From assembly GCA_043719805.1 (NCBI GenBank), contig JAYSTI010000015.1, positions 4,881 to 68,880 on the forward strand: DNA of 64,000 nt, given 5' to 3'. Both the position numbers and the translations under genes were made by a program. Below are positions 2,392 through 48,276 of the stretch, in pieces. Within the stretch, counting starts at the first letter, position 1. Each line of letters opens with the position of its first letter. A model generated the notes under the pieces. It searched no databases, had not been told where the DNA came from, and worked only from the letters and a program-made list of their open reading frames with translations. This stretch comes from Candidatus Lloydbacteria bacterium (GTDB lineage Bacteria; Patescibacteriota; Minisyncoccia; Phycocordibacterales; UBA6899).

Positions 2392-2392
2392 A

Positions 2393-3121: not shown

Positions 3122-3181
3122 TATCGCACTATAGCAACGGCATAGAGTTTTATCAATATCAGCATGCTATAATCACAACCT

Positions 3182-17524: not shown

Positions 17525-20500
17525 AGCAACTTCATTTCAATGTAATAAGGAGTATCCGACGCCGCGCACGGCGTGTGCTTCGCACATCGGGAATATTTTT
17601 CCTCACTTTGCTGACAATCTTTTACAGTTTTGGCGGTCTCGACTTCTATCTTGGGCTCATGACGCCATTTGCTCCCCGTGAGGCAGAGGCGGCATACACC
17701 GGAAAGCATCTCCGCACCGTTGAATTTATTTTGGGCGGAGGCACAGAGGCATCATCACGCGCGACGACACTCCTTACGTACTTCGGGTCAGCGACCTCGA
17801 CCACAAAGGGCCCCGCAGGAACAATGCCGGTCAAAATTCAGGGCTCCAGCATCGAAGTGAAAAGTGCGTATATTGACGTTGCGTATGTTATCGCAAGTCA
17901 GACAAATATCACCAACGAAGACGTTACTATTGATGTTGGTGGTTCTTCCTCTGGTGGCACAGATGCTCGCGTCGCAGAACTTGTTGGTGCGAGCCTTTAT
18001 GCGCAAAGTGGTGCCTTTACGAGCTACGTGAGACATCAGTACGACGTGACATCCTTTTTTGACCGACAGAGTGACGCAAGTTTCAATGCGGGAATACCCG
18101 TTGTGGCAAGTGTGGCCGTTACTGGCCCTACGCGTTCGCTGACCACACTCAGATTGGTTGTTACCTACGAGCAAAATTATTCAGCGAGTGTGCACACTGA
18201 GACGAAGACTGTGCGCTTCCCACTTGCTTCGACTGCAGCAAGCGACCGCGGTACGCGCGGGACGGTGTGTGCAGCCGCTACGACATGCACATTTCTTGCA
18301 ACGTCTACTATTCCCGATGCTGCGCTCGATGCGGATATCGTGAGTGTATATGTGGAGATGCATGGTGAGGTAAGCTCAAATCTTTCATCAAATTGGAGAA
18401 TAGGAATCCGCGGCGGGACTGGAACAAACGCGACGTCGTCTCCATTTGCGTGGTCGGAGTTGCTCACCGATGCTCCCGTTTATACAACCATCTGGAGTCC
18501 GACGGTGGGAAGTCCGAATTTTCAGAGGAATGCCGTGATGACTTTCGACGTACTGACCGGTACCGCCCCCGTCAACGCACTTGGCGGTGAGCTTGTCATT
18601 ACCTACAGTTTTTCTACCAATGCAGCGGTGCAGACGGAAACGGTGCGCTACTTTATGGACCAGCGCACCGCAGGCCCCGGTACAACACGCAATAACTTCG
18701 CCACGACATCGATGACGATATCCAACGGTGGGTTGTCTATGAAAAACGTATGGTTCAAAGTGCATACTGCACCCTTTGCTGCGAGTACTTTCACTTTATT
18801 CGGCAAGGTTGGGACGTCAACGGAGGTGACGAGGGGAATCACTATTGCAGCCGGAAATACCCGTGCAGGTAATGACCATACGATAATTTTCGACATGTCC
18901 GACAAGGCGGGGAATTTCTTTACGGCCGCAACTGACGTAATGGGAGCAACACAATTTTCTGCAGGCGGTGCACCGCCGGGAGTAGAGGCCTATTTCACAT
19001 TCACATGGAGCGGAAGTGCGGGGGGTGCAGAGACAAAAACGGTGACGTTTTCGGCCGCACAGCAGGGAACCAACGCAATCACAGGGGACTTTAATAATCG
19101 CCCCGCATATCTCTCACTCCCCGAGACGGTCACAAAGACATACCGCAGTGCATACCTTGAAACGAAGTACATGCATTCCCAGGCTTCCGCGTCCTTTGCT
19201 ATCGGCACTCTTACTATTGCCGTGAACGGTTCTTCAACGGTGATAACCGAGGTTGGAGATACTGAATCATATGCGTCGACCTATTTTGCTCAAATCGCGT
19301 CGTCGACATTTTCGGATGGAAACACCATCGCATGGACGGAGCGCGCCATAGAAATTAGTGAAGGAAAAAATGTGGCAAATCTCACCTCGTTCGCGAATAT
19401 GGTGGTGGTGACGTACGATGTAGATTTTTCTATCACCCAAGTAACCCCACCAGCGAAGCACCTCCGCACTGTGGAGTTTGTATTGGGAGGGGGCACCGAC
19501 ACGACATCACGCGCAACGGCGGTTTTGGCATATGGAGGGGCGACATGGAATACAGTGAAGGGTACAGCGGGGACTCGGTCGGTCATGATAAAAGGCTCGG
19601 GTATCGCAGTAAAAAACGCTTACCTTGACGTGTCGTATGTCATTAATACTTCCGCTGTTGTGACGAATGAAAATGTTTTTATTGATGTTGGTGGTTCATC
19701 ATCGGGGGGTACTGATGCGCGAGTTTCGGAGCTACTTGCTGCGTCACTTTGGGCAGCAAGTGGCCTCTCCGGATACCAGCGTCATCAGTACGACGTCACC
19801 GCATTCTTCGATAGACAGGGCGATGCAAGCTGGAACACGGGTATACCGGTCGCGACTGCGGTCTCTGTGACCGGACCGTCGCACTCACTCACTACGGTGA
19901 GGCTTGTTATTACATACGAGGAAAATTATTCACTTGTTCCACACACGGAAACGAAGACCGTGCGCTTCCCACTCTCCTCAATGGTGGCCGGGGACAGGGG
20001 TACGCGGAGTACGGTATGTGCCGCGGCGACAACATGCTCATTTCTTGCAACCTCTACAATTCCCGATGCAGTCGCCGATGGGGACATTGTGGATGTTTAT
20101 GTCGAAATACACGGCGAGGTAGATTCAAATGCTGCGTCGACTTTTCAGGTAGGCATTAGAGGCGGAAGCGGTGGAAACGCAACATCAACAGCATACAATT
20201 GGACAGAAGTGCTCCTCGACGACAACACAAAAACCGCTATTTGGCGTCCGACTGTTGGTAGTCCTAATTTTCAAAGGAATGCAGTGATGACCTTCGATGT
20301 GCTCATCGGGGCCGTGCCGATGAACGCACTCGGGGGTGAACTTGTCGTTACATACAATTATTCTACAGGTGCGGCGTTGCAAACAGAAACGGTCCGTTAT
20401 TTCATGGACCAAAATGCGACCTCTACCCCAGGAAATGCGCGGAGTGAGTTTCCTACGACAACGATGACGATATCGAATGTGGGTTTATCCATGCAAAATA

Positions 20501-22842: not shown

Positions 22843-22932
22843 ACATTCCACATGCAAACATCTGCCACCCCAAAGTGCATTTCAGTCGTTGTCCCCACTA
22901 CTTCTTGGGAATCCTACTCTATAATAAGAAGC

Positions 22933-24207
22933 ATGACGGAAAAGAGGAATCCGCGGGCATTTTGGTATACGATGCTGTTTTCTTTTTTGCTCTCACTCAT
23001 GTTTGCACCGCTCGCGCATGCTGAGGATTTCTCAGTAATCCCTGCAGTCATCGACGGGAAGGGGAAGTCGCGTGAGATTCTTCGCTACACGCTGACCGTC
23101 GAGAACACCACAAAGCACATGCTCCAGCTCTATCCGTGGGTCGCCGACCTCGACGCCGCTTCCGGTGCGACGGCGGGAAGCGATCTTGGCGGCGGGTCAC
23201 CGGGAGAATCGCGTATGGCCTCACCTTCCCGCTGGATAGAGATTAGTCGAGCAATGATTGACCTGCTTCCCGGTGAGAAGAAGGATATTCCGGTTCTGAT
23301 ACAAATAGACATGAATGCGGAGCCGGGAATTTACCATGCACTCATTCACGTGAGTGACGGCAGCAATCGCGCCGTTGCAGAGGCGAATGTCGCAGGTACG
23401 CGCGACACCGCGGTCAACATCGAAGTGCTTGATGACATTCACGAGCGGCTCGAGTTGAATACGTTTATGCCTGATAAGAATTTTTTCAGCGGCACCAACG
23501 CGTCATTCAATTATCGCATTGAAAACATCGGCAATCGCGGAGTTACTCCAACGGGCAAAATTCATATTTTTGACCGTAGAGGTGAAGAGGTTGCCGCCAT
23601 CGACGCAAATCAGGACAATCGTCGCCTTGAGCCGAACCAGAAAGAACTGCTCGCCTCAGTGTGGTCGGCAAACGGACATTTTGGACGGTACAAAGCGATG
23701 CTCGAGCTTGATTATGGCGCGCGTGGCGTTGTGCAAGATACGGTGTATTTTTGGATTATGCCTTGGACGAAACTGCTCGGCATGTTTGGGACCATCTGTT
23801 TGATGGGAGTTATCTTGGCGCTTGTGGCGCAGTCGTGGGGAATGGCGCAGCGCGGACCGCGACGACGTTTCGCTTTCTCTTTTTTGAGATCATCGCGTGG
23901 TCCCCGTGAGCTTGAGTTCTCGCCGGACGAAGAGGACAAAGATGCGCGCGAGGCATACGTCGACGGCATCACGGAGGTCGCAATTCCTCCACGCACCCGT
24001 ACGCGCTACAGCGTGGCCGAGCGAGAGCCGCGAACTCACGCACGCGAGACTCATGTGATTCATGACGAGTTGCACGCACTCGCTAGTGCAGGGAGGGGCG
24101 CGACGCATTCAGATGGTGCGCACACTGAGGGGCACAAGGTGCATCTGACCAAGAAAGAAAAATACATCGACCCGAATCATATCGTCACATTGGGAAGGAG
24201 GAAGTGA
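22933..24207 (+). CDS. Paralogue family A, copy 1. It is a cell-surface beta-sandwich protein with a C-terminal TM anchor and a basic cytoplasmic tail, with a DUF916/DUF3324-like (CscA-like) architecture.
   Basis: It has a signal peptide, a beta-rich domain of about 250 aa, a TM helix (LLGMFGTICLMGVILALVA) and a charged tail. It is paralogous to 24230..25615 and 36240..37316. Confidence 0.55.
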   Translation: MTEKRNPRAFWYTMLFSFLLSLMFAPLAHAEDFSVIPAVIDGKGKSREILRYTLTVENTTKHMLQLYPWVADLDAASGATAGSDLGGGSPGESRMASPSRWIEISRAMIDLLPGEKKDIPVLIQIDMNAEPGIYHALIHVSDGSNRAVAEANVAGTRDTAVNIEVLDDIHERLELNTFMPDKNFFSGTNASFNYRIENIGNRGVTPTGKIHIFDRRGEEVAAIDANQDNRRLEPNQKELLASVWSANGHFGRYKAMLELDYGARGVVQDTVYFWIMPWTKLLGMFGTICLMGVILALVAQSWGMAQRGPRRRFAFSFLRSSRGPRELEFSPDEEDKDAREAYVDGITEVAIPPRTRTRYSVAEREPRTHARETHVIHDELHALASAGRGATHSDGAHTEGHKVHLTKKEKYIDPNHIVTLGRRK

Positions 24208-24229
24208 TGCGTATCGCGGCATTTATACT

Positions 24230-25615
24230 ATGCAAAAAATGAAACAGTACACATTGTCTCCGGTTAGTTCGCTCACGCGACCCTGCTCCATTGCCATTTC
24301 CGCAATACTGTTTTTCGCACTGTTCCTACTTGTTCCCTCCGCCGCCTTCGCACAAGTCGATAAGAGTAGTCTCTCCATCACCATCGCCCCTCCGCTCTAT
24401 CAGCTTACTATTGCACCGGGCACATTGTGGAAGAGCACACTGCGCATCGTGAATACAAATCCCTATCCGCTCTCCATTCATACGGAGGTCGCAGATTTTC
24501 ATCCGAATGGGGAAACGGGAAATGCGGTGTTTGATAATTTGTCTCAGGGTAGTCCGGAAGACACTCGCCTCATGTCGGGGTGGATAATACTTCCCCCAGG
24601 TGATATCACGGTGCCACCTGACCAATCGTATGAGATTCCATTTTCAATCATGGTCCCACCGAATGCGGACCCGGGAGGGCACTACGGCGCCATTATGGTG
24701 GGCACACTTCCGCCGGACAACGTAGGTGGTAGCGGCGCGAGTGTCGGTACGATGCTCTCTTCGCTTATCTTCTTGCGCGTTCCCGGAGAGGTAATCGAGG
24801 AAGGGCTCATTCGTGACTTTTATGCCGCGAAGGATGTGGTGCCCTCGCCACTGCAGTCGTTTGTGTTGCGTTTCGAGAATAAAGGGAATGTGCATCTCGT
24901 TCCTCAGGGGCAAATCGTCATCACGAATATGTGGGGGAAGACGCGCGGGACAATAAACGTAAATGCAAAAAGTTCATTTGGTAACGTACTCCCCGGTTCA
25001 ACGAGAAAATTCGCCTTCGAATGGAAAGGGGAGGAGTCTATTTTTGATATCGGTCGCTACAAAGTGGAGGCGGTGCTTTCATATGGTGACCAAAACAAGC
25101 AGAGCGCCGTGCGCATAACGCACTTCTGGATTATTCCGTGGTTCAAAGTTTCCGCCACGCTCTTTACCGTCTTCTTTCTTGCGTGGTTCTTTACGTGGTC
25201 TATCAAGCGCTATATTCGCAATGCACTTCGGTTGGAGCGACAACGAATTTTTGGAGATGAGGGAGCGGAGCACAAAACAGCACATCGCGACACCAAGGCC
25301 ACACATCATCCGGCTCCTCATCACGAAGCTATGCCTCCGCGACTTACTCTCGACGTCCTGCGGCGCCCGCTTGTCGTTGGTGCAACGGAGCTGTCTCGCG
25401 GCAGATCAATGCCCGCTCACGTGGCGCACGCGAAGGAGAAGCACGCAAAACGGACCAAACACTTCTCATACATAGAGTGGGCAAAACGCTACCGCCTCTT
25501 CATTCTCTTCGTCCTAGTATTTGTCATGGGCTGTGCATTTATTTCTTGGTACTTCGTCGAAGTCTTCAAGGAGGAGCGCACTTACAACGTCACCGAAATC
25601 CGCCCGAAGGGGTAG
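24230..25615 (+). CDS. Paralogue family A, copy 2 (DUF916/DUF3324-like surface protein)
   Basis: It has the same signal, beta-domain, TM (WFKVSATLFTVFFLAWFFTW) and tail architecture. It shares the motifs SxxxxPPxYxL, G(Q/R)YKA(M/V) and F(W/I)I(M/I)PW with copy 1. Confidence 0.6.
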   Translation: MQKMKQYTLSPVSSLTRPCSIAISAILFFALFLLVPSAAFAQVDKSSLSITIAPPLYQLTIAPGTLWKSTLRIVNTNPYPLSIHTEVADFHPNGETGNAVFDNLSQGSPEDTRLMSGWIILPPGDITVPPDQSYEIPFSIMVPPNADPGGHYGAIMVGTLPPDNVGGSGASVGTMLSSLIFLRVPGEVIEEGLIRDFYAAKDVVPSPLQSFVLRFENKGNVHLVPQGQIVITNMWGKTRGTINVNAKSSFGNVLPGSTRKFAFEWKGEESIFDIGRYKVEAVLSYGDQNKQSAVRITHFWIIPWFKVSATLFTVFFLAWFFTWSIKRYIRNALRLERQRIFGDEGAEHKTAHRDTKATHHPAPHHEAMPPRLTLDVLRRPLVVGATELSRGRSMPAHVAHAKEKHAKRTKHFSYIEWAKRYRLFILFVLVFVMGCAFISWYFVEVFKEERTYNVTEIRPKG

Positions 25616-25716
25616 TGGGCATTAATCTCTACTTATATATAGACATTTCATTCTGTCTTGATAGAGTAGAGTGATGAAATTACAATTGAGTCCGTGGTTG
25701 AAATACAATCAATAAG

Positions 25717-26292
25717 ATGACACTTGTATCAAAAAAATATGTCGTTATGTGTGTTGGGTACACGCATTCAGGTAAAACAACGTTCGCAAAAAAAATTGCA
25801 AAAACCGTTAGCAATCTCGTGCTGATAGATACAGACGAAATTGCAAGCTTCGTTATGGAGCGTTACCCGGCAGCCGTCCTCTCTTTGCACAACAAACAAA
25901 AAAGAGATTTCAGAAACCCGAACCTCAAATTCCTTCTCTGGAAAGGCGTATTGAAATTCTGCTTAGATGCAGGCGTTAACGTCATGTTGTCCAATGGAAA
26001 TCTTGGGAAAGATATCCGCTCACTGATTTGCCGTACAGCAAAAGCAAATGGGTACAAGGTTGTTACGGTTTATTTTAATATTCCGACCGAGACTGTTGCG
26101 AGCAGGATTAAGTCTTCAAAGAAAAGCACGAAGATGTTTGTTCATTCGAAAAAATGGCAAGTGGTTTTAGATAAGCAGAAAGGATATGCAGAGCTTCCGC
26201 CTTCCAAAAAAGACACCACGTATTTTGAAATTCAAAAAAACGCAGACTATGGTTTGGTTGAGACAGGCATAGTACGGCTTCTATGCAAGTAG
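25717..26292 (+). CDS. P-loop kinase (AAA_33 / zeta-toxin-like ATP-binding protein)
   Basis: The Walker A motif GYTHSGKTT is present. The ORF is about 190 aa, similar in size to small nucleotide or antibiotic kinases. Confidence 0.6.
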   Translation: MTLVSKKYVVMCVGYTHSGKTTFAKKIAKTVSNLVLIDTDEIASFVMERYPAAVLSLHNKQKRDFRNPNLKFLLWKGVLKFCLDAGVNVMLSNGNLGKDIRSLICRTAKANGYKVVTVYFNIPTETVASRIKSSKKSTKMFVHSKKWQVVLDKQKGYAELPPSKKDTTYFEIQKNADYGLVETGIVRLLCK

Positions 26293-26505
26293 AGCGCGAG
26301 GGTTCGATGTCGCGTATGCCACTGTTTTGAGGCGATACATGTTTCAAGTGGAAGGTGACGAGGGAAGTTCCCTTGTTGAGCGTGGATAAAACTTCCTGGA
26401 GCCTCCACAGACGAACGGCTTGGTCCGCACGGTCCTGCGGGCGGCATTCGTCGAGGATAGTTTTGCCCGCCGCTGGAAGCGGGCAAATGAGCTCCAAGAT
26501 GTTTT

Positions 26506-26620
26506 ATCCGAGCTGAAAGTTACCCGCAGTTTGTCCACCATTTTCCACAGGCAGAATATAATTAATACTAGGTTCTTTCTATGTATTCTCGGAAATCCAC
26601 ACTCTTCGGTGTGGGTGCGG
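26506..26620 (+). promoter_or_regulatory. Promoter/leader module, copy 1. It contains DnaA-box-like 9-mers, TTTTCCACA, TATAAT and a conserved leader CTATGTATTCTCGGAAATCCACACTC.
   Basis: TTTGTCCAC is at 26530..26538. TTTTCCACA is at 26541..26549. TATAAT is at 26557..26562. The leader matches copy 2. Confidence 0.45.
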
Positions 26621-26754
26621 TGGGTGGTGCTGTCGTGACGCCAGTACTCGCCCTTGTCTATGCTGTGGGTCTTGGAACCCTCTGCGCCATCTCACTTTTG
26701 GCATCACTCTTCGCTCGCTATTTTCGTAGTAGAAACCAAGAAAATCTATTTATT

Positions 26755-28032
26755 TTACGTATGCACATGCTCGGCTTCAACGGAACATATAGAGCAGGTG
26801 TCACAAATACTTGCGCCATTCCTGAACGCTTTCCATGCTTTAGATAATGGAAGAATTCTCATAAACATGCAGAGATCAACGAGGCGACGGATACCCCAGC
26901 CAACTCTTCCATAGAGGGAAAAATTTCCGATAAGTACACCAGCCCACTTGGGGCCTGCGGGGATGGCATTAATGGGCATTGTGGGTGCATAAATTGTATA
27001 GATTGGAAGTAAGCCATTTCCCAGAATCGTCTGTGCGACGACCTCACCCGCATGCCTGCCGTCATAAAGTGCCGTCTGTGCCCATCCGGAAAATTGCGTT
27101 GCCGCTCCGTCGCCAGCAACAAATATCGCAGGGTAATCTTTGATTCGTAGATGTGCATCGACTTCTACCTTTCCGCGTTTGTCGATAGGAAGTTTCCAAT
27201 TCTCATAGCTTGCATTTGCGCGAACTCCCGCAGTCCAGATCACGGTCCGTGCTTTTATTTTCATGTCTTTTAAGAATACCTCTTCGCATTCTTCACGCTC
27301 AATCGTGCGATTAAGAAAAATGTTGATGCCCAATCCGCGCAAGTGATGCTCGATGCGGTCAGTAAATGATTTCGGAAGAGCGGGGAGAATTTTAGGAGCA
27401 CCCTCGATAAGATCAACGGATACCAGCCCAGGGTCAATGCCGTATGCGCTTGCGAGTTCTCGCGCGTAGACAATGAGTTGTCCTGCCATTTCGACCCCCG
27501 TAGCACCAGCACCGATGACGACAAAGTGTGCGTCGCAGATCTGCTCGACCTTGTTGGTAAAATCTATCTTGCAGGTGAGGAGTGCTTCAGTGATGTGTTG
27601 CTTCAGCTTGAGTGCCTCGGGGATGGACTTCATGCCGTATGAGTACTCCCTGAGTCCGGGAATGCCAAAGTAATTGGTCTCAGATCCAAGTCCCAGAATA
27701 AGATAATCGTAGCGATAACGAGAACCAGAAGAACCCGTGAGCGTTTTCTCCTCTCCGTGGAGTAGGGTGATGCGGTCTTCGACCACCTCAACATGTTTTC
27801 CTTGGAATATTTCTCGGAGTGGAATGCAAACTTCCAGTGGGGAGCTTCCCGTCACTAAGCGATAGAGGGCTGCATGATATTCAAAATGTGGCTTATCTGC
27901 GACAAGTATGATTTTTACATTTGGAAGGCGTTTTTTTTCTAGCGCTAGTGCGGCTGCAACTCCAGCAAATCCACCCCCCACGATAACAATGTGCGTTTCC
28001 ATCATGCCGGGGATTATAACATAGCAAGACAT
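26755..28032 (-). CDS. ndh: Type II NADH dehydrogenase (NDH-2), a FAD-dependent pyridine nucleotide-disulfide oxidoreductase
   Basis: The FAD-binding Rossmann motif is HIVIVGGGFAGV. A second GxGxxG (VVIGAGATGVE) is present. The real start is probably the Met at 28002 (METHIV). Confidence 0.8.
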   Translation of the reverse strand: MSCYVIIPGMMETHIVIVGGGFAGVAAALALEKKRLPNVKIILVADKPHFEYHAALYRLVTGSSPLEVCIPLREIFQGKHVEVVEDRITLLHGEEKTLTGSSGSRYRYDYLILGLGSETNYFGIPGLREYSYGMKSIPEALKLKQHITEALLTCKIDFTNKVEQICDAHFVVIGAGATGVEMAGQLIVYARELASAYGIDPGLVSVDLIEGAPKILPALPKSFTDRIEHHLRGLGINIFLNRTIEREECEEVFLKDMKIKARTVIWTAGVRANASYENWKLPIDKRGKVEVDAHLRIKDYPAIFVAGDGAATQFSGWAQTALYDGRHAGEVVAQTILGNGLLPIYTIYAPTMPINAIPAGPKWAGVLIGNFSLYGRVGWGIRRLVDLCMFMRILPLSKAWKAFRNGASICDTCSICSVEAEHVHT

Positions 28033-28360
28033 TCATTTTTACGGCAGTGCTTTCTTTGCAAAAAATACGGCATAGTCATCGTGCTGTCGATGTTTCCTAT
28101 TCATGCATTTGCTGTGATTGCTTATCTCCTCAGTCTTGCGGAGGTTATGTGGAAAAGGTAAGTAGTGTGGTCTTCGCCTTTTGGCGAAGCAGGCCCGTCG
28201 AGCGACCTAAAATTTCATCGAGTCATCGAGCGCTGAAATTTGGAAGTACTCGCAGTGGTACAGAATCACAATTTTTCGCAGGAAAAATTGATGATGAGTT
28301 TTTCGTCTCACGAAGCGAGGGCGACAAGGTTGCTCTGAAAAGACTTGCTGCCCGAGTGGA

Positions 28361-28475
28361 AAGTTATCCACAGTTATCCACAGTTTGTCCACCCTTTTTC
28401 CACAGTCGTTGTATAATAAATGCTAGGTGTATTCTATGTATTCTCGGATATCCACACTCCGAGGTCAAAAGTACA
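28361..28475 (+). promoter_or_regulatory. Promoter/leader module, copy 2. It has tandem perfect DnaA boxes TTATCCACA x2 plus TTTGTCCAC, TTTTCCACA and TATAAT, followed by a conserved leader.
   Basis: TTATCCACA is at 28364..28372 and 28374..28382. TATAAT is at 28412..28417. The leader is ctatgtattctcggatatccacactccgag. Confidence 0.5.
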
Positions 28476-28785
28476 GGTGAGTCACCATCCCAAATTATTG
28501 CATTGAAAAACGCTCCAAAAGTTTTTTAATGATTCGGCTTTTCAAGTGGTACTCGCCCGCGAAAAGTCAGAATTGAGCATTGTTTTATTGGAATGTCGGT
28601 TTGCCATTATTCATCCCACCGAGTTGCGAAACTCTTGGATAATGATCTGCGGACTCTGTGCGCTGACGGGGGAAAACGAGGGGCATGAAGCGTGTGCCAC
28701 AAAGGGTTTCTCAGTGTTGGAGCCAAAATTTGTGAATCGTTAGACATTGGTTGTGTCAACTTGGAATTTATCCCACTAGTTCTTT

Positions 28786-29994
28786 ATGAGCTATCTCCAC
28801 ATGTTTCGATATCTTGCCCGATTGAAAGGGCTCGGAATCGTACTCCTGACCGCTACTATCGGTTGGGCAGTCGGTATCCCGTTTCTTATTAATACTGGTT
28901 CGGCAGCGCAACTCACATTTGTCTCCGCCACTGCGTCTTCGTCTGCACCGTCCGTCTCGACGAGTTATATGGTACGATTTACGACAACTGGTACACTCGG
29001 CAGTGGCGTTGCGGGATTTGCTTCGTCAACGAGAATTACTTTCGATCCAGTGGGTGATTCGTTCGACGTCACTTCGCTCGCTACCACTACTGATGTATTT
29101 ATTTCAGGTGGCGTTACTCAGGTGGCAAATCTTGCTAGCTGTACGGGGCCAACAACTGATGAGGTTTACGTCTCGCAGATTGGTCGTTCGCAGCCTGCGG
29201 ACTTTGTCGAGTTTACCACTTGCATGGGAGACACGGTTCCCGCAGGTGCAAAGATCGTAAATCTTCCAAACGCACACGTCACCAATCCTGGAGCGACAGG
29301 TTCCTATGTCGTTCGCATCGGCGCGGGGTTCACCAACGCCACTACGACCGGAATTGCTGACTCCGGAGATACTCGCGTGGCGATCATTAGTTCAGTCACT
29401 ATGACGGCATCTGTCGATAGCAATCTGACCTTCGCAATCACCGGTGTTGCATCGAGCTCCATTGTGAACGGTGACACAACTTCAACATCAACGACTCCAT
29501 CTGTCACGGCAATTGGGTTCGGCACGCTCTCTGTCGGGACTTCGTCTATTGCTGCGCAGGACATTTCCGTTGCAACGAACGCCGCAAATGGCTTTAGTGT
29601 CACCGTCACGCAGAGCCAGGACCTCACTGCTTCGAATGGTGCGACAATCAATGCATTCAGGGATGGGAATGCGGCGCCCGCAGGTGTATTGGCTGCCCCC
29701 GCAGCTTGGGGTGCTGCCCCGTTGGGTACTATCGGTAACGCGAATTCTTACGGTCACATGGGAATTACCTCTGAGGATGCAACGTTGCCGGCCGATGACT
29801 TCGGCTCCGCATTCTACGGAGGACTCACGTCGACCTCAACACGCACAGTGCTCTATCACACAGGCCCTGCCGATGGAACGACCGCAGATATTGGAAGGAC
29901 GCGAGTTGGATACCGCGTGCAAATCACGTCACTTCAGGAGGCGGGATCTGATTATACGAATCAGATCAGGTACGTTTGTACGCCGATCTTCTAG
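28786..29994 (+). CDS. Paralogue family B, copy 1. It is a secreted or membrane-anchored beta-rich protein with a conserved post-TM segment (QLxxVSATASSSAPSVST...RFT) and an invariant C-terminus (...RYVCTPIF).
   Basis: A 402-aa ORF with an N-terminal TM. It is paralogous to 30035..31201 and 34673..35839. Confidence 0.65.
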   Translation: MSYLHMFRYLARLKGLGIVLLTATIGWAVGIPFLINTGSAAQLTFVSATASSSAPSVSTSYMVRFTTTGTLGSGVAGFASSTRITFDPVGDSFDVTSLATTTDVFISGGVTQVANLASCTGPTTDEVYVSQIGRSQPADFVEFTTCMGDTVPAGAKIVNLPNAHVTNPGATGSYVVRIGAGFTNATTTGIADSGDTRVAIISSVTMTASVDSNLTFAITGVASSSIVNGDTTSTSTTPSVTAIGFGTLSVGTSSIAAQDISVATNAANGFSVTVTQSQDLTASNGATINAFRDGNAAPAGVLAAPAAWGAAPLGTIGNANSYGHMGITSEDATLPADDFGSAFYGGLTSTSTRTVLYHTGPADGTTADIGRTRVGYRVQITSLQEAGSDYTNQIRYVCTPIF

Positions 29995-30034
29995 GATGCT
30001 GCCCACCTAACTTATCTAGCAAACAAAAATACCA

Positions 30035-31201
30035 GTGAATTATTACAACCCACTCATGCAATTTGTTCGTTCGAGAACATTGAGCGCCGCAATCATCATT
30101 GCGATGGTTGGTTTGGTGTTTCCGGCATTTCAACTCTTCACTCCAACCTACGCAGCACAGCTAAGCCTCGTAAGTGCCACGGCGTCTACGTCAGCCCCGT
30201 CGGTTTCGACGAACTACATGGTGAGGTTTACGAACATAAACACAATAGGCCAGGCAGTGACGGCATCAACATCGAGGATAACGTTTGACCCTCTTGGGAA
30301 CTCATTCGATTTTTCTTCACTCGTCGTCGGCGATATTACAGTCTCGGGTCCTCAGGTGACGACAAGAACCGGAATAGGTGGCTGCACGGGGCCGACAACA
30401 AATGAAATGTATCCGTCATCAATTGGCGTAAATCCCGACTATATTGAGCTTTCTACTTGCGTTGGCGACACTGTTCCCGCAGGTGCCATTTTGGTTAATA
30501 TGGCAAATGCTCATGTCGTGAATCCTGCAGCCGTTGGCTCGTATATTGTGCGCATTAACGGCACAATGACCGATTCCGCCGACACCCGTGTCGCAACCAT
30601 AAACTCCGTGACAATGACAGGAATCGTCGGCACCAATCTAACTTTCACGGTTGCCACTGTCGCCTCGAGTTCACTGGTCAACGGGGATACAACCTCAACG
30701 TCGAGTTCGGCGACGGCAATTGGGTTTGGCACACTTTCGGTTGGTACCTCGTCTATCGCCGCACAGGACATCACTGTTCAGACAAATGCATTAAATGGTT
30801 TCAGTGTAACGGTAACCGAAAACCAAGACCTCACTTCTTCCAACGGTGCGACTATCAACGCGTTTAGAGACGGCAATCCAGCACCAGGTGGCATCCTCGC
30901 TGCCCCCGCAGCTTGGGGTGCCGCCCCGTTGGGTACGATTGGTAATGCGAACTCCTACGGTCACATGGGGGTTACCTCTGAGGATTCAACGTTACCGGCC
31001 GATGACTTCGGCTCCGCATTCTACGGAGGACTCACCTCGACCTCAACGCGCACGGTGCTCTATCACACTGGTCCCGCAGACGCATCAACTGCAAACATCG
31101 GAGCTACTCGTGTGGGATTCCGTGTGCAGATTACCTCACTCCAGGAAGCCGGAACTGACTACACGAATCAGATCCGCTACGTCTGCACCCCGATTTTTTA
31201 G
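30035..31201 (+). CDS. Paralogue family B, copy 2
   Basis: A 388-aa ORF. The motifs AQLSLVSATASTSAPSVSTNYMVRFTN and the terminal ...QIRYVCTPIF are present. The 3' ~350 nt are about 85% identical in nucleotide sequence to copy 1. Confidence 0.65.
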   Translation: MNYYNPLMQFVRSRTLSAAIIIAMVGLVFPAFQLFTPTYAAQLSLVSATASTSAPSVSTNYMVRFTNINTIGQAVTASTSRITFDPLGNSFDFSSLVVGDITVSGPQVTTRTGIGGCTGPTTNEMYPSSIGVNPDYIELSTCVGDTVPAGAILVNMANAHVVNPAAVGSYIVRINGTMTDSADTRVATINSVTMTGIVGTNLTFTVATVASSSLVNGDTTSTSSSATAIGFGTLSVGTSSIAAQDITVQTNALNGFSVTVTENQDLTSSNGATINAFRDGNPAPGGILAAPAAWGAAPLGTIGNANSYGHMGVTSEDSTLPADDFGSAFYGGLTSTSTRTVLYHTGPADASTANIGATRVGFRVQITSLQEAGTDYTNQIRYVCTPIF

Positions 31202-31233
31202 GGTTACATTTTTAAACTCCGAATAGGTGACAA

Positions 31234-31262
31234 AAAAGCAAGCTCAAGCTGAGCTTGCTTTT
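31234..31262 (+). terminator. Rho-independent terminator after family-B copy 2
   Basis: The hairpin is aaaagcaagctca-agc-tgagcttgctttt. Confidence 0.6.
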
Positions 31263-31384
31263 ACGTAAAAAAATATATAGTGACTTATCCACTCGATATT
31301 AACAGCCTTATGAACAAATCTAAGGCGCAAATTTCTGGGGGGGGTGCTAGTGTGGGATAAGTTTGTTAAACTATTATTTGTGAT

Positions 31385-34108
31385 ATGAATATTTTTCAAG
31401 TGAACAAGATGACACAGTTGTCAATCTGTATACTAGCAGGGTTGTTTAGTTTTTCTATTGTTCACGCTCAAGGCGTAGCAGCATTTCCGCAGCGTATTAG
31501 CGTCGCCACTGATGGTACGCAGGCAAACGGGTGGTCATATCAACCACTGATTGGTGGCGATGGTCGCTTTGTTATTTTTAACTCAGGTGCGAACAATTTC
31601 GTTTCCGGAATAATTTCTACAGCTTCAGCGTATGTTCATGATAACCTGACTGGATCAACCGAGCCAGTAATTTCACTTAATGGAACGGTGAGGTATGCAT
31701 CTGCTAATTCAATTAGTAATAATGGAAGATATGTTGCTTTTAATTCTAGCGACTCCAGCCTTGTTTCTGGTGACACAAATGGTCAAATGGATACTTTTGT
31801 GCAAGACGTGACGACTGGCATAACAATTCGCGTAAGCATGGCAGCGGGCAATATTGAAAGTAACGGATATTCTACTCCATGGGCAGTAAGTAATGACGGA
31901 AATTTCACACTTTTTGATTCCAGTGCTACCAATCTTGTGCCTAACGACACGAATGGAGCATCTGATATTTTTTTGCGAGATATCAGTAATGGAGTCACTA
32001 CCAGGGTGAGTGTGGCAACTGATGGAACGCAGGGCGGCGGCGCATCCACTGGTCTTGCAAATTTTTCTGTTGACGCGCGCTTTGTCGTTTTTACATCAGA
32101 CGCAAATAATCTCGTTTCAGGTGACGCTGGTGGTAGGGATGTTTTTCTTCACGATAGAATAAGTGGCGCTACGACGCTTGTGAGTACCGCTTCCGATGGT
32201 ACTCAAGGAAATGGACAATGTGGCTATTGCGAGGGTTATCCAGAAATTTCTGGCAATGGCCGATTCATTGTATTTATTTCTAGTGCAACGAATTTGGTTT
32301 CTGGCGACACGAACGGTGTCACAGATGTTTTTGTAAAGGACTTACTGACTGGCATTACTACGCGCGAGAGCGTTGCAAGTGATGGATCACAAATGCTTGA
32401 CTCAGTAACTCAAGTTGGTGCGATGTATCCGCAAATTAGTGACAACGGACGATTTGTGACCTTTTCCACATTTGCTGCGAATCTTGTTGGTGACGACACG
32501 AATAATACCGTTGATGCTTTTATTCATGACCGAGATACGGGGATGACCTACAGAATTAGCGTAAACGGTTACAATTTGGAGGGTAATTCACATTCCCATC
32601 ATCCTGACGTGAGTGGTGATGGACGAGTGATAACTTTTTATTCAGACGCTACAAACATGGTTCCGGGAGACACAAACGGAGTTGGGGATATATTTGTGAA
32701 GCTAAATCCTGCACTGGTTGATGCTCGTCCGAATGCTCCAATGGGCTTTGTTGCAAGCATGGTCTCGACCTCGTCCCTCTCTCTTGCGTGGACAGATAAT
32801 TCGGCGAATGAAGATGGGTATCAGCTCGAACGTTCGTTTGATGGTGTCGCATATACGCAGATTGCAACGACGAGTGTTGATGCTGCAGGCCATATTGATA
32901 ATGGACTTTCCCCTGCGACTTCATACTACTATCGACTCCGTGCATTTAATGTTGGCGGTGCATCGGAGTATGCAACGACTTCGGCCGTTACCGAAGTGGA
33001 TAATCATGCCCCAGTATTATCCCTAATTGGCAATCAAGCAGTAAATGAGGGTGGAGTGCTTTCGCTCACCCTTTCGGCCTCTGACCGAGATGGCGACAGT
33101 ATAACTTACTCCGCATCAAATCTCCCCACAGGCGCAGTGTTTGATGCGCAAACCCATGTATTTTCTTGGACTCCCGCATTCACGCAGTCCGGGGTTTATC
33201 CCAACGTAGTGTTTACTGCGACTGATTCAGGAAATCCTACTCTGTCCATAACGGAATCCATTACAATCACCATAGACGACGTTAATCGTGCGCCGCTGCT
33301 CCTGCTAATTGGCAGTCGAGCAGTAAATGAGGGTGGAATGCTCACGTTTACCCTCTCGGCAACCGACCCCGATGAAGATAGTTTGACCTATGGTGCCTCC
33401 AACCTTCCACTGGGTGCGACGTTCGACGCGCAAACCCACACATTCTCATGGGTGCCGAGTTATAGCCAAGCAGGAAATTATACTAATATAGAGTTTACGG
33501 TCACCGACAGCGGAGGCCCTATCGAGCTCGCCGTGGAACTTGTCACAGTCACGGTGGGTGACGTGAATCGCGCGCCAGTCTTTGCGCCACTTAGTGCGCA
33601 GCAGGTACTTGAGAATGCCCCGCTTAGCTTCACTGTTTTCGCGACCGATCCGGATGGCGACACAGTCTCGCTCATGGCAACGAGCGCTCCTAGCGGGGCG
33701 ACATTCAATGCATTGACCGGTTTGTTCTCCTGGACACCCGGTCTCATGCAGGCGGGAGTCTGTGTCGTTATCTTTGTTGCAACGGACAACGGTCTACCGG
33801 TTGAACAGGCAATGATCGACGTAGTAATCACGGTTGGCGACGATCCCACCCCGGTTGAACAGGCGGCAGCCATAGTAGGCGTTGTGGTGGGCTATAACTT
33901 TCCGACAAATATAGAGAATTCTTATCTCGCTAATTTGAAGAAGGTTGAAAACTTTATCCAGAATGGACAGGTTACCTCTGCGCTTAACCAGCTGAACGCC
34001 TTCATCGTCAAGGTGAACGCTGATTATGGTCGCAGTATTATTACTCAGGTTGTACGTGATAATCTTCTCGCGATGGCCCAGCTACTGATTGCCGTGTTAA
34101 ACAACTAA
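31385..34108 (+). CDS. Large secreted protein with a PD40-like beta-propeller repeat region, an FN3 domain and three cadherin-like / putative-Ig domains
   Basis: The signal is (M)TQLSICILAGLFSFSIVHA. Repeats of the form S.DGTQ.NG.S..P.ISGDGRFV.F.S.A.NLV.GDTNG..DVF recur. The FN3 domain is LSLAWTDNSANEDGYQLERS...YYYRLRAFN. Three units of SxxDxDGDxxTYxASNLPxGAxFDAQTHxFSWxP follow. Confidence 0.7.
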   Translation: MNIFQVNKMTQLSICILAGLFSFSIVHAQGVAAFPQRISVATDGTQANGWSYQPLIGGDGRFVIFNSGANNFVSGIISTASAYVHDNLTGSTEPVISLNGTVRYASANSISNNGRYVAFNSSDSSLVSGDTNGQMDTFVQDVTTGITIRVSMAAGNIESNGYSTPWAVSNDGNFTLFDSSATNLVPNDTNGASDIFLRDISNGVTTRVSVATDGTQGGGASTGLANFSVDARFVVFTSDANNLVSGDAGGRDVFLHDRISGATTLVSTASDGTQGNGQCGYCEGYPEISGNGRFIVFISSATNLVSGDTNGVTDVFVKDLLTGITTRESVASDGSQMLDSVTQVGAMYPQISDNGRFVTFSTFAANLVGDDTNNTVDAFIHDRDTGMTYRISVNGYNLEGNSHSHHPDVSGDGRVITFYSDATNMVPGDTNGVGDIFVKLNPALVDARPNAPMGFVASMVSTSSLSLAWTDNSANEDGYQLERSFDGVAYTQIATTSVDAAGHIDNGLSPATSYYYRLRAFNVGGASEYATTSAVTEVDNHAPVLSLIGNQAVNEGGVLSLTLSASDRDGDSITYSASNLPTGAVFDAQTHVFSWTPAFTQSGVYPNVVFTATDSGNPTLSITESITITIDDVNRAPLLLLIGSRAVNEGGMLTFTLSATDPDEDSLTYGASNLPLGATFDAQTHTFSWVPSYSQAGNYTNIEFTVTDSGGPIELAVELVTVTVGDVNRAPVFAPLSAQQVLENAPLSFTVFATDPDGDTVSLMATSAPSGATFNALTGLFSWTPGLMQAGVCVVIFVATDNGLPVEQAMIDVVITVGDDPTPVEQAAAIVGVVVGYNFPTNIENSYLANLKKVENFIQNGQVTSALNQLNAFIVKVNADYGRSIITQVVRDNLLAMAQLLIAVLNN

Positions 34109-34130
34109 TCTGAGGCTAATCTGAATCAAC

Positions 34131-34165
34131 AAAGTCTCCGCGTAAGCGCGGAGACTTTGTTTTCT
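34131..34165 (+). terminator. Rho-independent terminator
   Basis: The hairpin is aaagtctccgcg-taa-gcgcggagacttt, followed by gtttt. Confidence 0.65.
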
Positions 34166-34420
34166 GTTGGCCATCGCGTGCAAATAACCTCACCCTAGGA
34201 GACAGGAACATATTACGCGAACAAGATCAGCTACGTTTTACCCCGTTTTTTTGATTTTTTCGACCGAAAATGATCAGTTAAAAACTATTTTACTATTCAA
34301 TGGTATAGTTGGGTATTTTTTTGCCCCTATGCTTATCCACTTTTGTGGACAACATTGTCGAATATAATGATATTTTCACGATTGCGCGATTTCCGAGGAG
34401 AAATCGCAACAAAATATGAG

Positions 34421-34500
34421 TTATCCACAGTTATCCACCGTAAGCGCACCACTTTTCCACAGGAGCGGTATAATTACTTGTAGGTGAGTTCTCTGTTTAT
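34421..34500 (+). promoter_or_regulatory. Promoter module, copy 3, with TTATCCACA/TTATCCACC tandem boxes, TTTTCCACA and TATAAT, upstream of family-B copy 3
   Basis: TTATCCACA is at 34421..34429. TTATCCACC is at 34431..34439. TTTTCCACA is at 34453..34461. TATAAT is at 34469..34474. Confidence 0.5.
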
Positions 34501-34672
34501 GGAAACAGAGAACAACACAAAAACATCCCATTCGCGAATAACAGAAGCGTTCTGAATATGGACTTCCCACAGGGACATATGCAACATCAGAACATTAGTG
34601 CTTCACTTTCTCCCGCTGCAAATTCTCCAAACTTGCAAGCAGTTATTCGTTATCAAAATAAAAGTTCACACT

Positions 34673-35839
34673 ATGGACTACACAAACGCATTTCGTTCTT
34701 TAATTCGCATGAGGTGGCTCGCCACGACGCTTGTCGTCGCGACCTTCTCTTGGGCACTCGGCCTACCATTTCTTTTTAATACGGCATCGGCATCTCAGCT
34801 CTTGCTGGTGAGTGCAACTGCATCATCATCTGCACCACTGGTCTCTGGAAATTACATTGTGCGATATACGAACATAAACACAATTGGTCAGGCCGTGACG
34901 GCATCAACAACAAGGATCACCTTTGACCCTGGGAGTAATTCATTCGATTTTTCGACGCTCGTCGTCGGCGATGTAACCATCTCAGGTCCTCAGGTGACGG
35001 GGAGAGCTAATATCGGTGCTTGCTCTGCACCGACCACAAATGAAATGTACCCCTCATCAATTGGCGTGAATCCAGACTATATTGAACTTACTACTTGTGT
35101 TGGTGATACCGTTGTCGCCGGTGCGCTTACTGTGAGTGTCGTAAATTCACATATAACAAATCCATCAGGTGTTGGTTCCTATGTGGTGCGTGTCGGCGGC
35201 ACAATGGCGGATTCCGCAGACACACGCGTTGCCATCATTAGCTCAGTGACCATGACCGCAATTGTTGATACCAACCTTACCTTTACAATTGCGGGTGTTG
35301 CCTCTAGTTCGCTCGTGAACGGCGACACAACCTCGACTTCGACCTCCGCAATAGCTATCGGGTTTGGCATCATCTCCGTTGGTACGTCGTCCATTGCGGC
35401 GCAGGACATTACCGTTGCTACAAATGCCTTCAATGGTTTTTCGGTGACCATCACTCAAAACCAAGACCTTCTTTCCGCGAATGGTGCAAACATCAACGCG
35501 TTTAAGGACGGCAATCCCGCACCAGGTGGTGTTCTCGATGCCCCCGTAGCCTGGACGACGCCACTAGGAACACTCGGAGTGAATAATGCATATGGTCACA
35601 TGGGTGTGACATCAGAGGATTCATCATTACCGACAGGTGACGCATTTGGCACTTCACTCTACGGTGGACTCACGTCTACGTCGACACGCACGGTCCTCTA
35701 TCACACTGCGGTGGCAGACGGTACGACTGCGCACATTGGTGCAACCCGCGTGGGATACCGCGTGCAGGTCTCGGCACTTCAGGAAGCAGCCGTCGACTAC
35801 AACAACGTTATCACCTACGTTTGTACCCCAATCTTTTAA
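34673..35839 (+). CDS. Paralogue family B, copy 3
   Basis: The start is at MDYTNAFRS, inside track ORF 34598..35839. The motifs SQLLLVSATASSSAPLVSGNYIVRYTN and the terminal ...TYVCTPIF are present. Confidence 0.65.
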   Translation: MDYTNAFRSLIRMRWLATTLVVATFSWALGLPFLFNTASASQLLLVSATASSSAPLVSGNYIVRYTNINTIGQAVTASTTRITFDPGSNSFDFSTLVVGDVTISGPQVTGRANIGACSAPTTNEMYPSSIGVNPDYIELTTCVGDTVVAGALTVSVVNSHITNPSGVGSYVVRVGGTMADSADTRVAIISSVTMTAIVDTNLTFTIAGVASSSLVNGDTTSTSTSAIAIGFGIISVGTSSIAAQDITVATNAFNGFSVTITQNQDLLSANGANINAFKDGNPAPGGVLDAPVAWTTPLGTLGVNNAYGHMGVTSEDSSLPTGDAFGTSLYGGLTSTSTRTVLYHTAVADGTTAHIGATRVGYRVQVSALQEAAVDYNNVITYVCTPIF

Positions 35840-36239
35840 AAGCACAATAGAAGCCGCCTCGCCTTGCCGTGGGGCCACTGTGATTTGGTCATACATTAGA
35901 ATATGTCTTGCCTTCTACAATCCCCATGCGTCGTATCTGCGTTCATCTGATACGCTCCACGGCAATGCAATCTAGTGTGCGTATCTTGGGTGTTCGGGCT
36001 ACCCGGAAGTGCTCGAATGCAGTCCATAGTGAAAAATGCACCAATCAATTTGATTGGTGCATTTTTTTGTCGTTTTACTGCACCGTTGCCTTTCCAAATG
36101 TGATTTATAAGATCACACTTTCCACATAGCCAATGATTCGGTACAATGGTAACTAGTCTCACTGAGGTGAGTTGTGGAAAGGAAAGAATTTATACATAGC
36201 TTATACGCCTCGCCGTGCGGGAGAGGTCCAAAATTTTTT

Positions 36240-37316
36240 ATGTCGAGATCCAATATGATTTTAAAGAGTGATTTGGTCCTTGCCGCGTTTGTCGGCTCTG
36301 CGATGCTCATCGCACCACTTTCGGCACTCGCGCAAAATAAAGTGAGTTTCAATCTTTCCCCTACGACTATTGAAGATAAAGTTGAGCCGGGCACGGAGCA
36401 CTCGTACTCGGTGCGTATCGAAAATCGTGGCGATCAGGGGACAACTCTTTATCCTGTCGCACGCAACATTTCAACAATCGGAGCCGACCATCAGCCCGTC
36501 TACATGGAAGGAGCTGACGTAAATGCGACGGAGCTTGCATCATGGATAACATACGATGAGTCAGTGCTTGATGTTCCTGCAGGCAAGGGGGCAGTGCTCC
36601 ATTTCACCATCAAATTTCCCGCCGATGCACGTCCCGGTTCGCACCTCGCGGGTTTATTTTTGACACAGAAACCGCCCGACAACCTCAAGGAAGGTTCTGC
36701 GGTGGGTTTCGATATTGGTGCAATACTCCATTTTCAAATGAAAGGGGATATCGTTGAGGACACACGCATGAGGGGATTCCGTACCGACAAGCTTATCTAT
36801 GGTTCTGCGAACGTCGTCTTTAGTGTGGAGGCGGAGAATAAGGGCAACACGCTTTCGCGCCCCCAAGGACTGATTGATATTACGGACATGTTCGGAAAGA
36901 AAGTCGAGTCACTTCCAGTGAATGAGACAGCTTACGTCATCTCACCGAACGCCACCGGAAAGTACGACGTCAACTGGAGTCCGGACGGGTTTGTCATCGG
37001 TCACTTTGAAGCGGTTGTGGCGCTCGCGGTACCTCTCGTTGACGGCGGAAATCAAACCATTTCATCGGTGACTTCGTTCTGGATACTCCCAATGAATATC
37101 ATTGGCCCGGTCTTGGGGGGTCTCCTCACGTTCATTCTCGTACTCTATTTCATGATTCGCCTCTACGTTAAACGACAGTTAGCGGGAATGGTGGGTGGAC
37201 GCGGAAGCTCGGCTGCACGTGGCGCACAGGGCATTTCACGACTTGCTGCGGTGGCCATCGGACTCTTGTTTGCGATTATTGTGGGTCTACTCATCCTCTT
37301 CTTCTACTTTGGCTAG
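36240..37316 (+). CDS. Paralogue family A, copy 3 (DUF916/DUF3324-like anchored surface protein)
   Basis: The signal is MSRSNMILKSDLVLAAFVGSAMLIAPLSALA. It has a beta-domain, a TM (IIGPVLGGLLTFILVLYFMI) and a second C-terminal TM. Confidence 0.55.
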   Translation: MSRSNMILKSDLVLAAFVGSAMLIAPLSALAQNKVSFNLSPTTIEDKVEPGTEHSYSVRIENRGDQGTTLYPVARNISTIGADHQPVYMEGADVNATELASWITYDESVLDVPAGKGAVLHFTIKFPADARPGSHLAGLFLTQKPPDNLKEGSAVGFDIGAILHFQMKGDIVEDTRMRGFRTDKLIYGSANVVFSVEAENKGNTLSRPQGLIDITDMFGKKVESLPVNETAYVISPNATGKYDVNWSPDGFVIGHFEAVVALAVPLVDGGNQTISSVTSFWILPMNIIGPVLGGLLTFILVLYFMIRLYVKRQLAGMVGGRGSSAARGAQGISRLAAVAIGLLFAIIVGLLILFFYFG

Positions 37317-37354: not shown

Positions 37355-37640
37355 GAGCGACGCCAAAGCAAATTCATCATATCTGGATTGTGCCAGATAT
37401 GATGAATTTGTCATTGGTTAGCGAGAAATACTTGAGTGTGAGCACTCAGTCATTTCTGAGCGACGCCAAAGCAAATACGCAGTTGCGGGGCTTTGCCCGC
37501 TGCTGCGTATTTGTCATTGGCTAAAATGCGAAATTGCACCCCAATTATGAAAGTTTTTACGACGTGATGCCAAAGCAAATTCACCGCAGCGACGCGGTGA
37601 ATTTGCTATTTGGTATCATACGAAATTTAATCCGTCTGCT
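37355..37640 (+). repeat. Array of at least 3 hairpins with conserved flanks (GCCAAAGCAAAT...ATTTGYC) and divergent inner stems showing compensatory variation
   Basis: Unit 1 stem: caaattcatcatatctgg / ccagatatgatgaatttg. Unit 2 stem: caaatacgcagttgcgggg / gcccgctgctgcgtatttg. Unit 3 stem: gcaaattcaccgc / gcggtgaatttgc. An extra hairpin, acttgagtg..cactcagt, lies between units. Confidence 0.6.
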
Positions 37641-47757: not shown

Positions 47758-48276
47758 AAACTTCCAAATTTGGCACACTACAATTTTTTCATCAACGAAA
47801 GGTTTGGGGGACGTACCCCATGTACGCCCCCGCAAACACTTTCATCTTGAAAAAATTGCAATGCGACTGATTTTTCTTAGCGGTAGCCGCTTTAGAAAAA
47901 CGAAGTGCCCTTGTGGTATATCCAAATTATGAAAGTTTTTGTAAGTCCGCTCGAACATCGCCACCTTGTCGCCTCGCAGCTTATCCCAAATATCACGCTA
48001 GCTTTCAGCGCCAAAATATTAGTTTTAAAATTTCGGCTTGCTTGCATATTTCTATTTTGCCTCGCACTACATCTCAATTTTGTAAATAATTTAATGCGTA
48101 GGTTTTTCAAAAAGATATAAATACTCGCTTGAGAGTGTTTTGATTCGACCCTTCTGCTACGGTGGTGCAACGATGATTTATATAATGTGTACGGTCGTAC
48201 ACATTATATAAAATTGAGAAAGAAGTCGAAAAAGAAAATCGCCCCAGGATGGAGGGCGATTGATACTTGGTTGGTC

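Follow-up and report, generated by a model that had tools for sequence, protein, structure and literature searches.

The 64,000-nucleotide stretch analysed here (the window) belongs to an uncultivated, Lloydbacteria-like member of the Patescibacteria (candidate phyla radiation, CPR) and is syntenic with Candidatus Lloydbacteria RIFCSPHIGHO2_02_FULL_50_18 (MHLM01), at ~70–75% nucleotide identity. It harbours three copies of a promoter module in which tandem boxes of the DnaA type precede a TATAAT hexamer. The region around these copies is a surface-protein island, composed of giant open reading frames (ORFs), proteins with immunoglobulin (Ig), cohesin and dockerin domains, and three paralogous genes of a family referred to as family B. 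Copies 2 and 3 had been proposed in the original prediction to drive family-B genes, which are indeed found directly downstream, and the evidence leans towards a putative DnaA-responsive promoter for secreted Ig-like surface proteins. Because most Patescibacteria cannot be grown, their gene regulation is, to our knowledge, almost entirely unexplored. The features of copies 2 and 3 are as follows.

28364–28372, + strand: copy 2, box 1, TTATCCACA, at −60 from the −10 hexamer
28374–28382, + strand: copy 2, box 2, TTATCCACA, at −50
28385–28393, + strand: copy 2, box 3, TTGTCCACC, at −39
28396–28404, + strand: copy 2, box 4, TTTTCCACA, at −28
28412–28417, + strand: copy 2, −10 hexamer TATAAT, with no −35 match 17 bp upstream
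28425–28785, + strand: copy 2, predicted 5′ leader of ~360 nt, starting near AGGTG (28425–28429) and containing a 14-codon short ORF (28436–28480) and a hairpin (28442–28448 / 28458–28464)
28448–28456: fifth box-like site in the copy 2 leader, ATATCCACA, at ~+25
28786–31201, + strand: copy-2 operon with two family-B genes (28786–29994 and 30035–31201)
~31235–31265: terminator-like hairpin after the copy-2 operon
34333–34352: two box-like sites inverted relative to each other, TTATCCACttttGTGGACAA, lying ~70 bp before the first copy 3 box
34421–34461, + strand: copy 3 box array, starting with TTATCCACA (34421–34429, at −60)
34431–34439, + strand: copy 3, second box, TTATCCACC, at −50
34453–34461, + strand: copy 3, last box, TTTTCCACA, at −28, preceded by a degenerate middle unit
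34469–34474, + strand: copy 3, −10 hexamer TATAAT
34482–34672, + strand: copy 3, predicted leader of ~190 nt, with AGGTG at 34482–34486
34488–34498 / 34503–34513: copy 3, 5′ hairpin of 11 bp
34673–35839, + strand: third family-B gene, with start ATG at 34673, behind copy 3
36031–36067: terminator downstream of the third family-B gene

The three copies contain the same ordered elements, as originally described. A search of the window for TTTTCCACAG-N5–10-TATAAT yields three matches, all on the + strand and with a spacer of 6 or 7 nt (26541, 28396 and 34453), against 0.00 in 100 dinucleotide-preserving shuffles. The 9-mer TTATCCACA with at most one mismatch occurs 31 times, an approximately 3-fold excess over the 11.3 ± 3.4 sites expected, and its only perfect sites in the 64 kb (28364, 28374 and 34421) all fall within copies 2 and 3. 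Two perfect boxes in copy 2, and one perfect box plus TTATCCACC in copy 3, are separated by 10 bp, exactly as predicted. The description of the array as two tandem boxes is correct for these pairs but is an undercount, since copy 2 comprises four head-to-tail boxes on the coding strand, with CCAC cores spaced 10/11/11 bp. Each array unit begins with a T-run, phased at 10–11 bp. In copy 2 the last box is followed by 7 nt, TATAAT, a further 7 nt and a conserved AGGTG. Sites matching TTATNCACA with at most one mismatch form clusters of two or more in copy 2 (28364, 28374, 28396 and 28448) and in copy 3 (34421, 34431 and 34453, plus 34333/34344); in copy 1 a single such site is present, at 26541. 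A scan for sigma-70 −35/−10 promoters picked up none of the three copies, which indicates that they lack a −35 element.

The conservation of the module is sharply delimited. Pairwise comparison with the Lloydbacteria ortholog shows background similarity upstream and near identity exactly from the first box, AAAGTTATCCACAG. The copy 2 array is conserved in L021/L005 and L023, and the copy 3 boxes are identical in L019 and L023; the inverted pair upstream of copy 3 is also retained in L019 (TTGTCCACtcctGTGGATAA) and L023, despite diverging flanks. Family-B loci were further collected from seven genomes with protein identities of 72% down to 40%, resulting in a set of nine genomes and 145 kb, including the window, in which family-B protein identity ranges from 100% to 40%. 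At all sampled family-B operon starts, DnaA-type boxes in sense orientation are present upstream of TATAAT, TACAAT or TATACT. Perfect TTATCCACA sites in the 145 kb lie without exception (14/14) in family-B upstream regions, whereas ~1.1 would be expected by chance according to our estimate; the view of the module as a regulon-like, gene-specific cis element is thereby borne out. With the −10 hexamer as reference point, 12 of the 16 promoters have a distal box that begins between −60 and −62, down to 40% protein identity. One locus (L027) carries four phased variant boxes, TTTTCCACA, CTATACACA, TTCTCCACA and TTTTGCACA, at −60, −50, −39 and −28, respectively. The most distant relatives retain a perfect −60 box, with proximal units decayed to a T-run plus CAACA (TTTTCAACA), and in L028, L030 and L026_a a single perfect −60 box stands without a partner. 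The module is thus a position-constrained cis element, specific to family-B genes and conserved across the nine sampled genomes.

A strict pattern, TTATCCAC-N10–26-TTTTCCACAG-N5–9-TATAAT, matches 11 stretches in the genomes of 185,579 species (one genome per species), for a chance expectation that we estimate at ~0.4. In the Lloydbacteria relative both matches are situated on one stretch (L005) and correspond to the copy-2 and copy-3 orthologs, and no other stretch of that genome contains a match. The element order is also observed before dnaA–dnaN in three Acidaminococcus genomes (L007/L009/L013) and before dnaA in Alteribacillus (L012). In two other CPR genomes it precedes a type IV pilin gene (Paceibacter, L011) and a gene for a secreted protein that is not homologous to family B (Buchananbacteria, L006), and in a metagenome-assembled genome of the Eubacteriales it precedes a gene for a protein with a signal-peptide-like N-terminus. 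A scan of Joint Genome Institute (JGI) metagenomes for the core plus AGGT recovers the module only in the same Lloydbacteria organism, the other seven matches having no boxes. The ~5 kb to the left of the window on the contig likewise contain no boxes.

The extended box GTTATCCACAG is identical to the high-affinity 11-mer of R1 and R4 in E. coli oriC. The score A, which combines density and affinity of four successive boxes, exceeds 0.3 at the sites that DnaA occupies stably in vivo in B. subtilis (Ishikawa et al. 2007, PMC2533591). Copy 2 has A = 0.357, the maximum of the window and above this threshold, which was calibrated on B. subtilis and not on the present host; copy 1 scores ~0.02, and the window outside copies 2 and 3 does not exceed 0.07. 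DnaA is known to act as a transcription factor, either as activator or as repressor (PMC8203912). According to the summary of Olliver et al. 2010 in PMC8203912, high-affinity boxes activate the nrdAB promoter, while a box specific for DnaA-ATP represses it. A literature search for papers linking DnaA boxes with CPR promoters found none. Since the box equals the R1/R4 11-mer and the same architecture is present at dnaA promoters, DnaA is a plausible candidate for the protein that binds the array.

In the mechanism that we propose, DnaA would bind the two distal boxes of high affinity (GTTATCCACAG, at −60 and −50) and from there help RNA polymerase at a promoter that offers only a −10 contact. 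At rising levels of DnaA-ATP, cooperative extension into the weaker −39 and −28 boxes (and, in copy 2, towards ATATCCACA at ~+25) could dampen transcription, for which the logic of E. coli nrdAB is taken as model. Production of the abundant surface proteins would thereby be tied to DnaA and to growth status. Activation is weakly favoured as the sign of regulation, because the −60 box is the best conserved, whereas distant relatives show decay of the proximal boxes.

Several observations weigh against DnaA-dependent activation. The A score of copy 3 (0.19–0.21) lies below the B. subtilis threshold, and, as the dnaA gene and oriC of the host lie outside the window and the collected family-B loci, the box specificity of its DnaA is presumed on the grounds that domain IV is generally conserved. 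Further TATAAT promoters of the genome likewise have no −35 element, which implies that an activator is not strictly required. At dnaA promoters with such an architecture the textbook outcome is repression, and this classic role at promoters of the same layout leaves activation only weakly favoured. Finally, four direct repeats with 10–11 bp phasing between −60 and −20 are also typical of regulators of the OmpR/PhoB family.

The last point leads to the main rival, in which a dedicated regulator other than DnaA, either a winged-helix response regulator of the OmpR/PhoB type or a paralog resembling DnaA domain IV only, activates the −35-less promoter as a tandem array. The layout is that of Pho-regulon promoters: four same-orientation repeats, phased at 10/11 bp and extending from −60 to −20 in place of a −35 element, and the restriction of the box to one gene family in 145 kb resembles a small dedicated regulon. 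Nevertheless, an OmpR/PhoB-type regulator fits less well than DnaA. The repeat unit is the full 11-bp E. coli R1/R4 box and not a half-site of 6–7 bp, a lone perfect −60 box persists in distant relatives (L028, L030 and L026_a), and the same architecture is present at dnaA promoters in unrelated phyla. Moreover, two tandem perfect boxes would be bound in any DnaA-containing cell anyway. The ORFs scanned in the window gave no Response_reg or Trans_reg_C match, although the gene could reside elsewhere in the genome. Taken together, a dedicated regulator appears unlikely. The chances are considerably smaller that the clusters serve mainly in replication control, by titration of DnaA or modulation of DnaA-ATP as at datA, DARS and the B. 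subtilis clusters, with an incidental promoter position. Copy 2 is indeed clustered as densely as the stable DnaA sites of B. subtilis, which are themselves intergenic, but a constraint on transcription is indicated by the fixed distance between distal box and −10 hexamer (−60 to −62 in 12/16), the fixed orientation and the association with a single gene family across genomes; the two roles, moreover, could coexist.

It is still less probable that the module is a strong, factor-independent promoter in which phased T-tracts bend the DNA like an UP element, the likeness to DnaA boxes being a coincidence. A T-run heads each unit in a 10–11 bp phase, and the proximal units of distant relatives keep this T-run while losing the CCAC core (TTTTCAACA). 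However, the exact 9–11-mer including CCACAG is conserved, not T-tracts alone, and curvature leaves the 14/14 perfect boxes at family-B promoters unexplained. A dispersed mobile or repetitive element, like a miniature inverted-repeat transposable element (MITE) or a repetitive extragenic palindrome (REP), or a replication origin, would be the most remote of these alternatives. Three copies within 8 kb, with copy 1 arisen by duplication, would suit a mobile element, but the strict pattern matches 11 stretches in 185,579 species genomes, and the scans place the module in the Lloydbacteria relative only at orthologous loci. The dozens of unrelated sites that, following the original prediction, would betray a mobile repeat are found neither in the species genomes nor in the JGI metagenomes. 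An oriC was rejected: the cumulative GC skew does not reverse across the window, no DnaA or DnaN domain match was obtained among the window ORFs scanned, the AT-rich stretches in the array regions are only the −10 hexamer and the leader, and each locus contains several copies.

TATAAT is found 2–9 nt before start codons at 3168, 3963, 5743, 8458, 28018 (minus strand) and 37670. Since many of the other TATAAT promoters lie 6–9 nt ahead of the start codon, leaderless mRNAs seem to be widespread in this genome. The leaders of copies 2 and 3, with transcription starts inferred from the sequence, are long (~360 and ~190 nt) although the genome otherwise favours leaderless mRNAs. Promoter plus leader are 87% (copy 2) and 85% (copy 3) identical to the Lloydbacteria ortholog, compared with ~70–75% for the coding sequences (~70–73% for that of copy 2). 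The leaders contain recurrent blocks, namely AGGTG at the predicted 5′ end, GGAGGAAG...CCATCCCA, and GCCATTATTC or GCGAATA...TATTCG. In the copy 3 leader the blocks CATCCCA and GCGAATA...TTATTCG are invariant, and GCGAATA (34537–34543) and TATTCG(T/C) (34644–34650) are invariant in all five copy-3-type leaders, including those of L019, L023, L024 and L026. RNAalifold suggests a possible long-range GCGAATA/TATTCG helix, invariant in 5/5 sequences and without informative covariation, which would lie just upstream of the start codon. The 5′ hairpin of copy 3 is more stable than shuffled sequence in three genomes (z = −5.2, −3.5 and −3.1). No Rfam family matches the leaders at the gathering threshold or at E≤1.

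What had been predicted for the leader of copies 1 and 2 requires revision. The shared leader reads CTATGTATTCTCGGA(A/T)ATCCACACTC, one A having been dropped in the earlier version. The ctcgg-loop-ccgag hairpin, thought to be common to both copies, occurs only in copy 2 and its orthologs and is no more stable than shuffled sequence (z ~ −0.2 to −0.5); the copy 1 leader folds otherwise, as CCACAC-UCUUCG-GUGUGG. Covariation analysis, for which the sequences are few and too similar, finds the copy 2 hairpin invariant in three close genomes, and the 5′ hairpin of copy 3 shows a single compensatory change. A leader peptide acting as attenuator was rejected, because relatives conserve neither its ATG nor its frame and because the 88-codon ORF of copy 1 is an orphan. 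L019 has lost the copy-3 ATG and its frame is shifted, and the ATG of copies 1 and 2 is absent from L024, L026 and L028. The recurrent conserved blocks tentatively suggest instead that the leader acts at the RNA level, e.g., on mRNA stability or on translation and ribosome access.

Copy 1 differs from the other two copies in both structure and context. Its features are as follows.

26504–26562, + strand: copy 1 module, with decayed distal boxes, intact proximal boxes and TATAAT
26504–26512, + strand: degenerate distal box, TTATCCGAG
26520–26528, + strand: degenerate distal box, TTACCCGCA
26531–26539, + strand: intact box, TTGTCCACC
26541–26549, + strand: intact box, TTTTCCACA
26557–26562, + strand: TATAAT
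26581–26847, + strand: orphan ORF of 88 codons that begins at the ATG of the duplicated leader

From the second box to the leader start, copies 1 and 2 are 83% identical over 88 nt. The segment of ~25615–28160, with the AAA_33 kinase gene, copy 1 and its ORF, and the Pyr_redox gene, is absent from the Lloydbacteria relative. The 88-codon ORF and the convergent Pyr_redox gene (26755–28005, minus strand) overlap at the 3′ end of the latter, whose start (28005) was confirmed by a leaderless ATG directly after TATAAT. The only match of the 88-residue product among 5.8 billion protein clusters is the product itself. The module had rightly been placed upstream of surface-protein genes for copies 2 and 3, but not for copy 1, which precedes an orphan ORF. 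The most likely reading of copy 1 is that a partial, lineage-specific duplication left it as a recent by-product, now in decay; if it fires, it may give an antisense transcript.

The family-B proteins show no match in sequence searches of Pfam, NCBIfam and the PDB. They have at least 234 homologs, the few named ones being from Paceibacterota, Pacebacteria or Lloydbacteria. An AlphaFold (AF2) model (pLDDT 87.9) consists of an N-terminal helix followed by two Ig-like β-sandwich domains, and Foldseek reveals only a generic resemblance to Ig-like Gram-positive adhesins, BslA and TasA. The family-B genes are predicted to encode secreted surface proteins with two Ig-like domains. A weak Foldseek match to the WxLIP–WxL complex of E. 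faecium (9i25_C, E = 0.018) was also obtained. Proteins of a second family, 'family A' (22852–25615 and 36174–37316), have a signal sequence, a β-rich body and a C-terminal transmembrane segment, and one of them shows a weak match to a WxL-interacting protein (PF06030, E = 0.0024). The island may be analogous to the WxL surface-complex loci of Gram-positive bacteria.

Between the two family-B operons lies a gene for a 907-residue protein (31385–34108) with He_PIG, Big_9, fn3 and FIMAH domains, which is missing from the Lloydbacteria relative and is thus a lineage-specific insertion or loss; a single TTATCCACT is present at 31285, ~100 nt upstream of this gene. The conserved operon upstream of family B is headed by an ORF of 1,773 residues (17521–22842) without a Pfam match. 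Directly upstream of the surface operon 15734–25615, a small ORF (15243–15737) with a weak HTH_17/AbiEi match could encode a local regulator. Further downstream, a giant ORF that exceeds 5,000 codons, and which contains a DUF2341 domain, starts at 48983 and runs past the window end (64000+). After the gene at 36174–37316, three tandem hairpin modules (37355–37615), each composed of GCCAAAGCAAAT, a stem-loop and ATTTG, are 79–89% conserved in the Lloydbacteria relative (L005, 1218–1601) and resemble a terminator or RNA element in repeated form. At 48181–48215, a perfect palindrome, TATATAATGTGTACG..CGTACACATTATATA, has TATAAT on both strands and could represent divergent promoters with one operator. 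Elsewhere in the window, adjacent genes for an AMMECR1-domain protein, a nitroreductase-family protein and YcaO, together with a 79-residue ORF (550–3121; L032, 5819–7773), look like a YcaO-type cluster for modification of ribosomally synthesised peptides (RiPP), and a DDE_Tnp_4 transposase gene (12812–13651, minus strand) indicates an insertion sequence element.

DnaA-box-controlled promoters are already a known kind, of which the present module would be a new member, from a phylum not studied in this respect and with genes that are an unusual cargo. The element displays positional conservation to the single base over a wide evolutionary span, and as it equals the site bound by a protein that is universal and can be purified, it provides a directly testable handle. 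If DnaA binds, its role as transcription factor would extend to surface-structure genes, which would suggest a way in which organisms with minimal genomes tie the production of their envelope to replication; should another protein bind, its regulon is the one that the element defines. Paceibacteria are CPR bacteria with very few transcription factors. A wider, tentative proposal, which we regard as possible though not probable, is that in these bacteria DnaA also serves as the chief regulator of transcription for those cell-surface structures that are most abundant, with an oligomerisation array like that of oriC redeployed to form the upstream half of the promoter. Its targets would comprise family B in the Lloydbacteria lineage and, in Paceibacter and Buchananbacteria, type IV pilin and other secreted proteins. 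The synthesis of envelope and attachment organelles would then be wired directly to the replication cycle.

Comparison with known systems brings out how the module is composed. In E. coli oriC, R1 and R4 anchor arrays of weaker sites in the same orientation, and here also a strong GTTATCCACAG anchor is followed by weaker same-orientation boxes at 1–2 bp distance. Unlike oriC, the module has no clear DNA unwinding element, no dnaA/dnaN context and no GC-skew reversal, ends at the −10 hexamer and is present in several copies. Pho-box promoters (PhoB/PhoP) similarly use direct repeats with a 10–11-bp periodicity that replace the −35 region, but the repeat in the present module is the DnaA box and not CTGTCAT or TT(A/T/C)ACA, and the window ORFs scanned yielded no response regulator in the vicinity. 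Copy 2 resembles the DnaA-box clusters of B. subtilis, including those at the DnaA-regulated sda and dnaA, in being a dense intergenic cluster with A >0.3 beside a gene (PMC2533591). It differs from these in its compactness (4 boxes in 41 bp) and its strict register with the −10 hexamer. As at E. coli nrdAB, in the summary of Olliver et al. 2010 given in PMC8203912, high-affinity boxes are located upstream of the core promoter with one or more weaker boxes nearer to it, an arrangement that permits activation at low occupancy and repression at high DnaA-ATP. In the present module, four head-to-tail boxes with an oriC-like spacing of 1–2 bp reach to −20 without a −35 element, and the target is a secreted surface protein, in contrast to the replication-related enzyme encoded by nrdAB. 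A further correspondence is with the autoregulated dnaA promoters of Acidaminococcus and Alteribacillus, in which TTATCCACA(C), (C)TGTCCACAG, TTTTCCACAG, 8 nt and TATAAT follow one another in a nearly identical order. There, however, the array is followed by dnaA–dnaN, whereas in the Lloydbacteria genome it is followed by a surface-protein operon with a leader of 190–360 nt.

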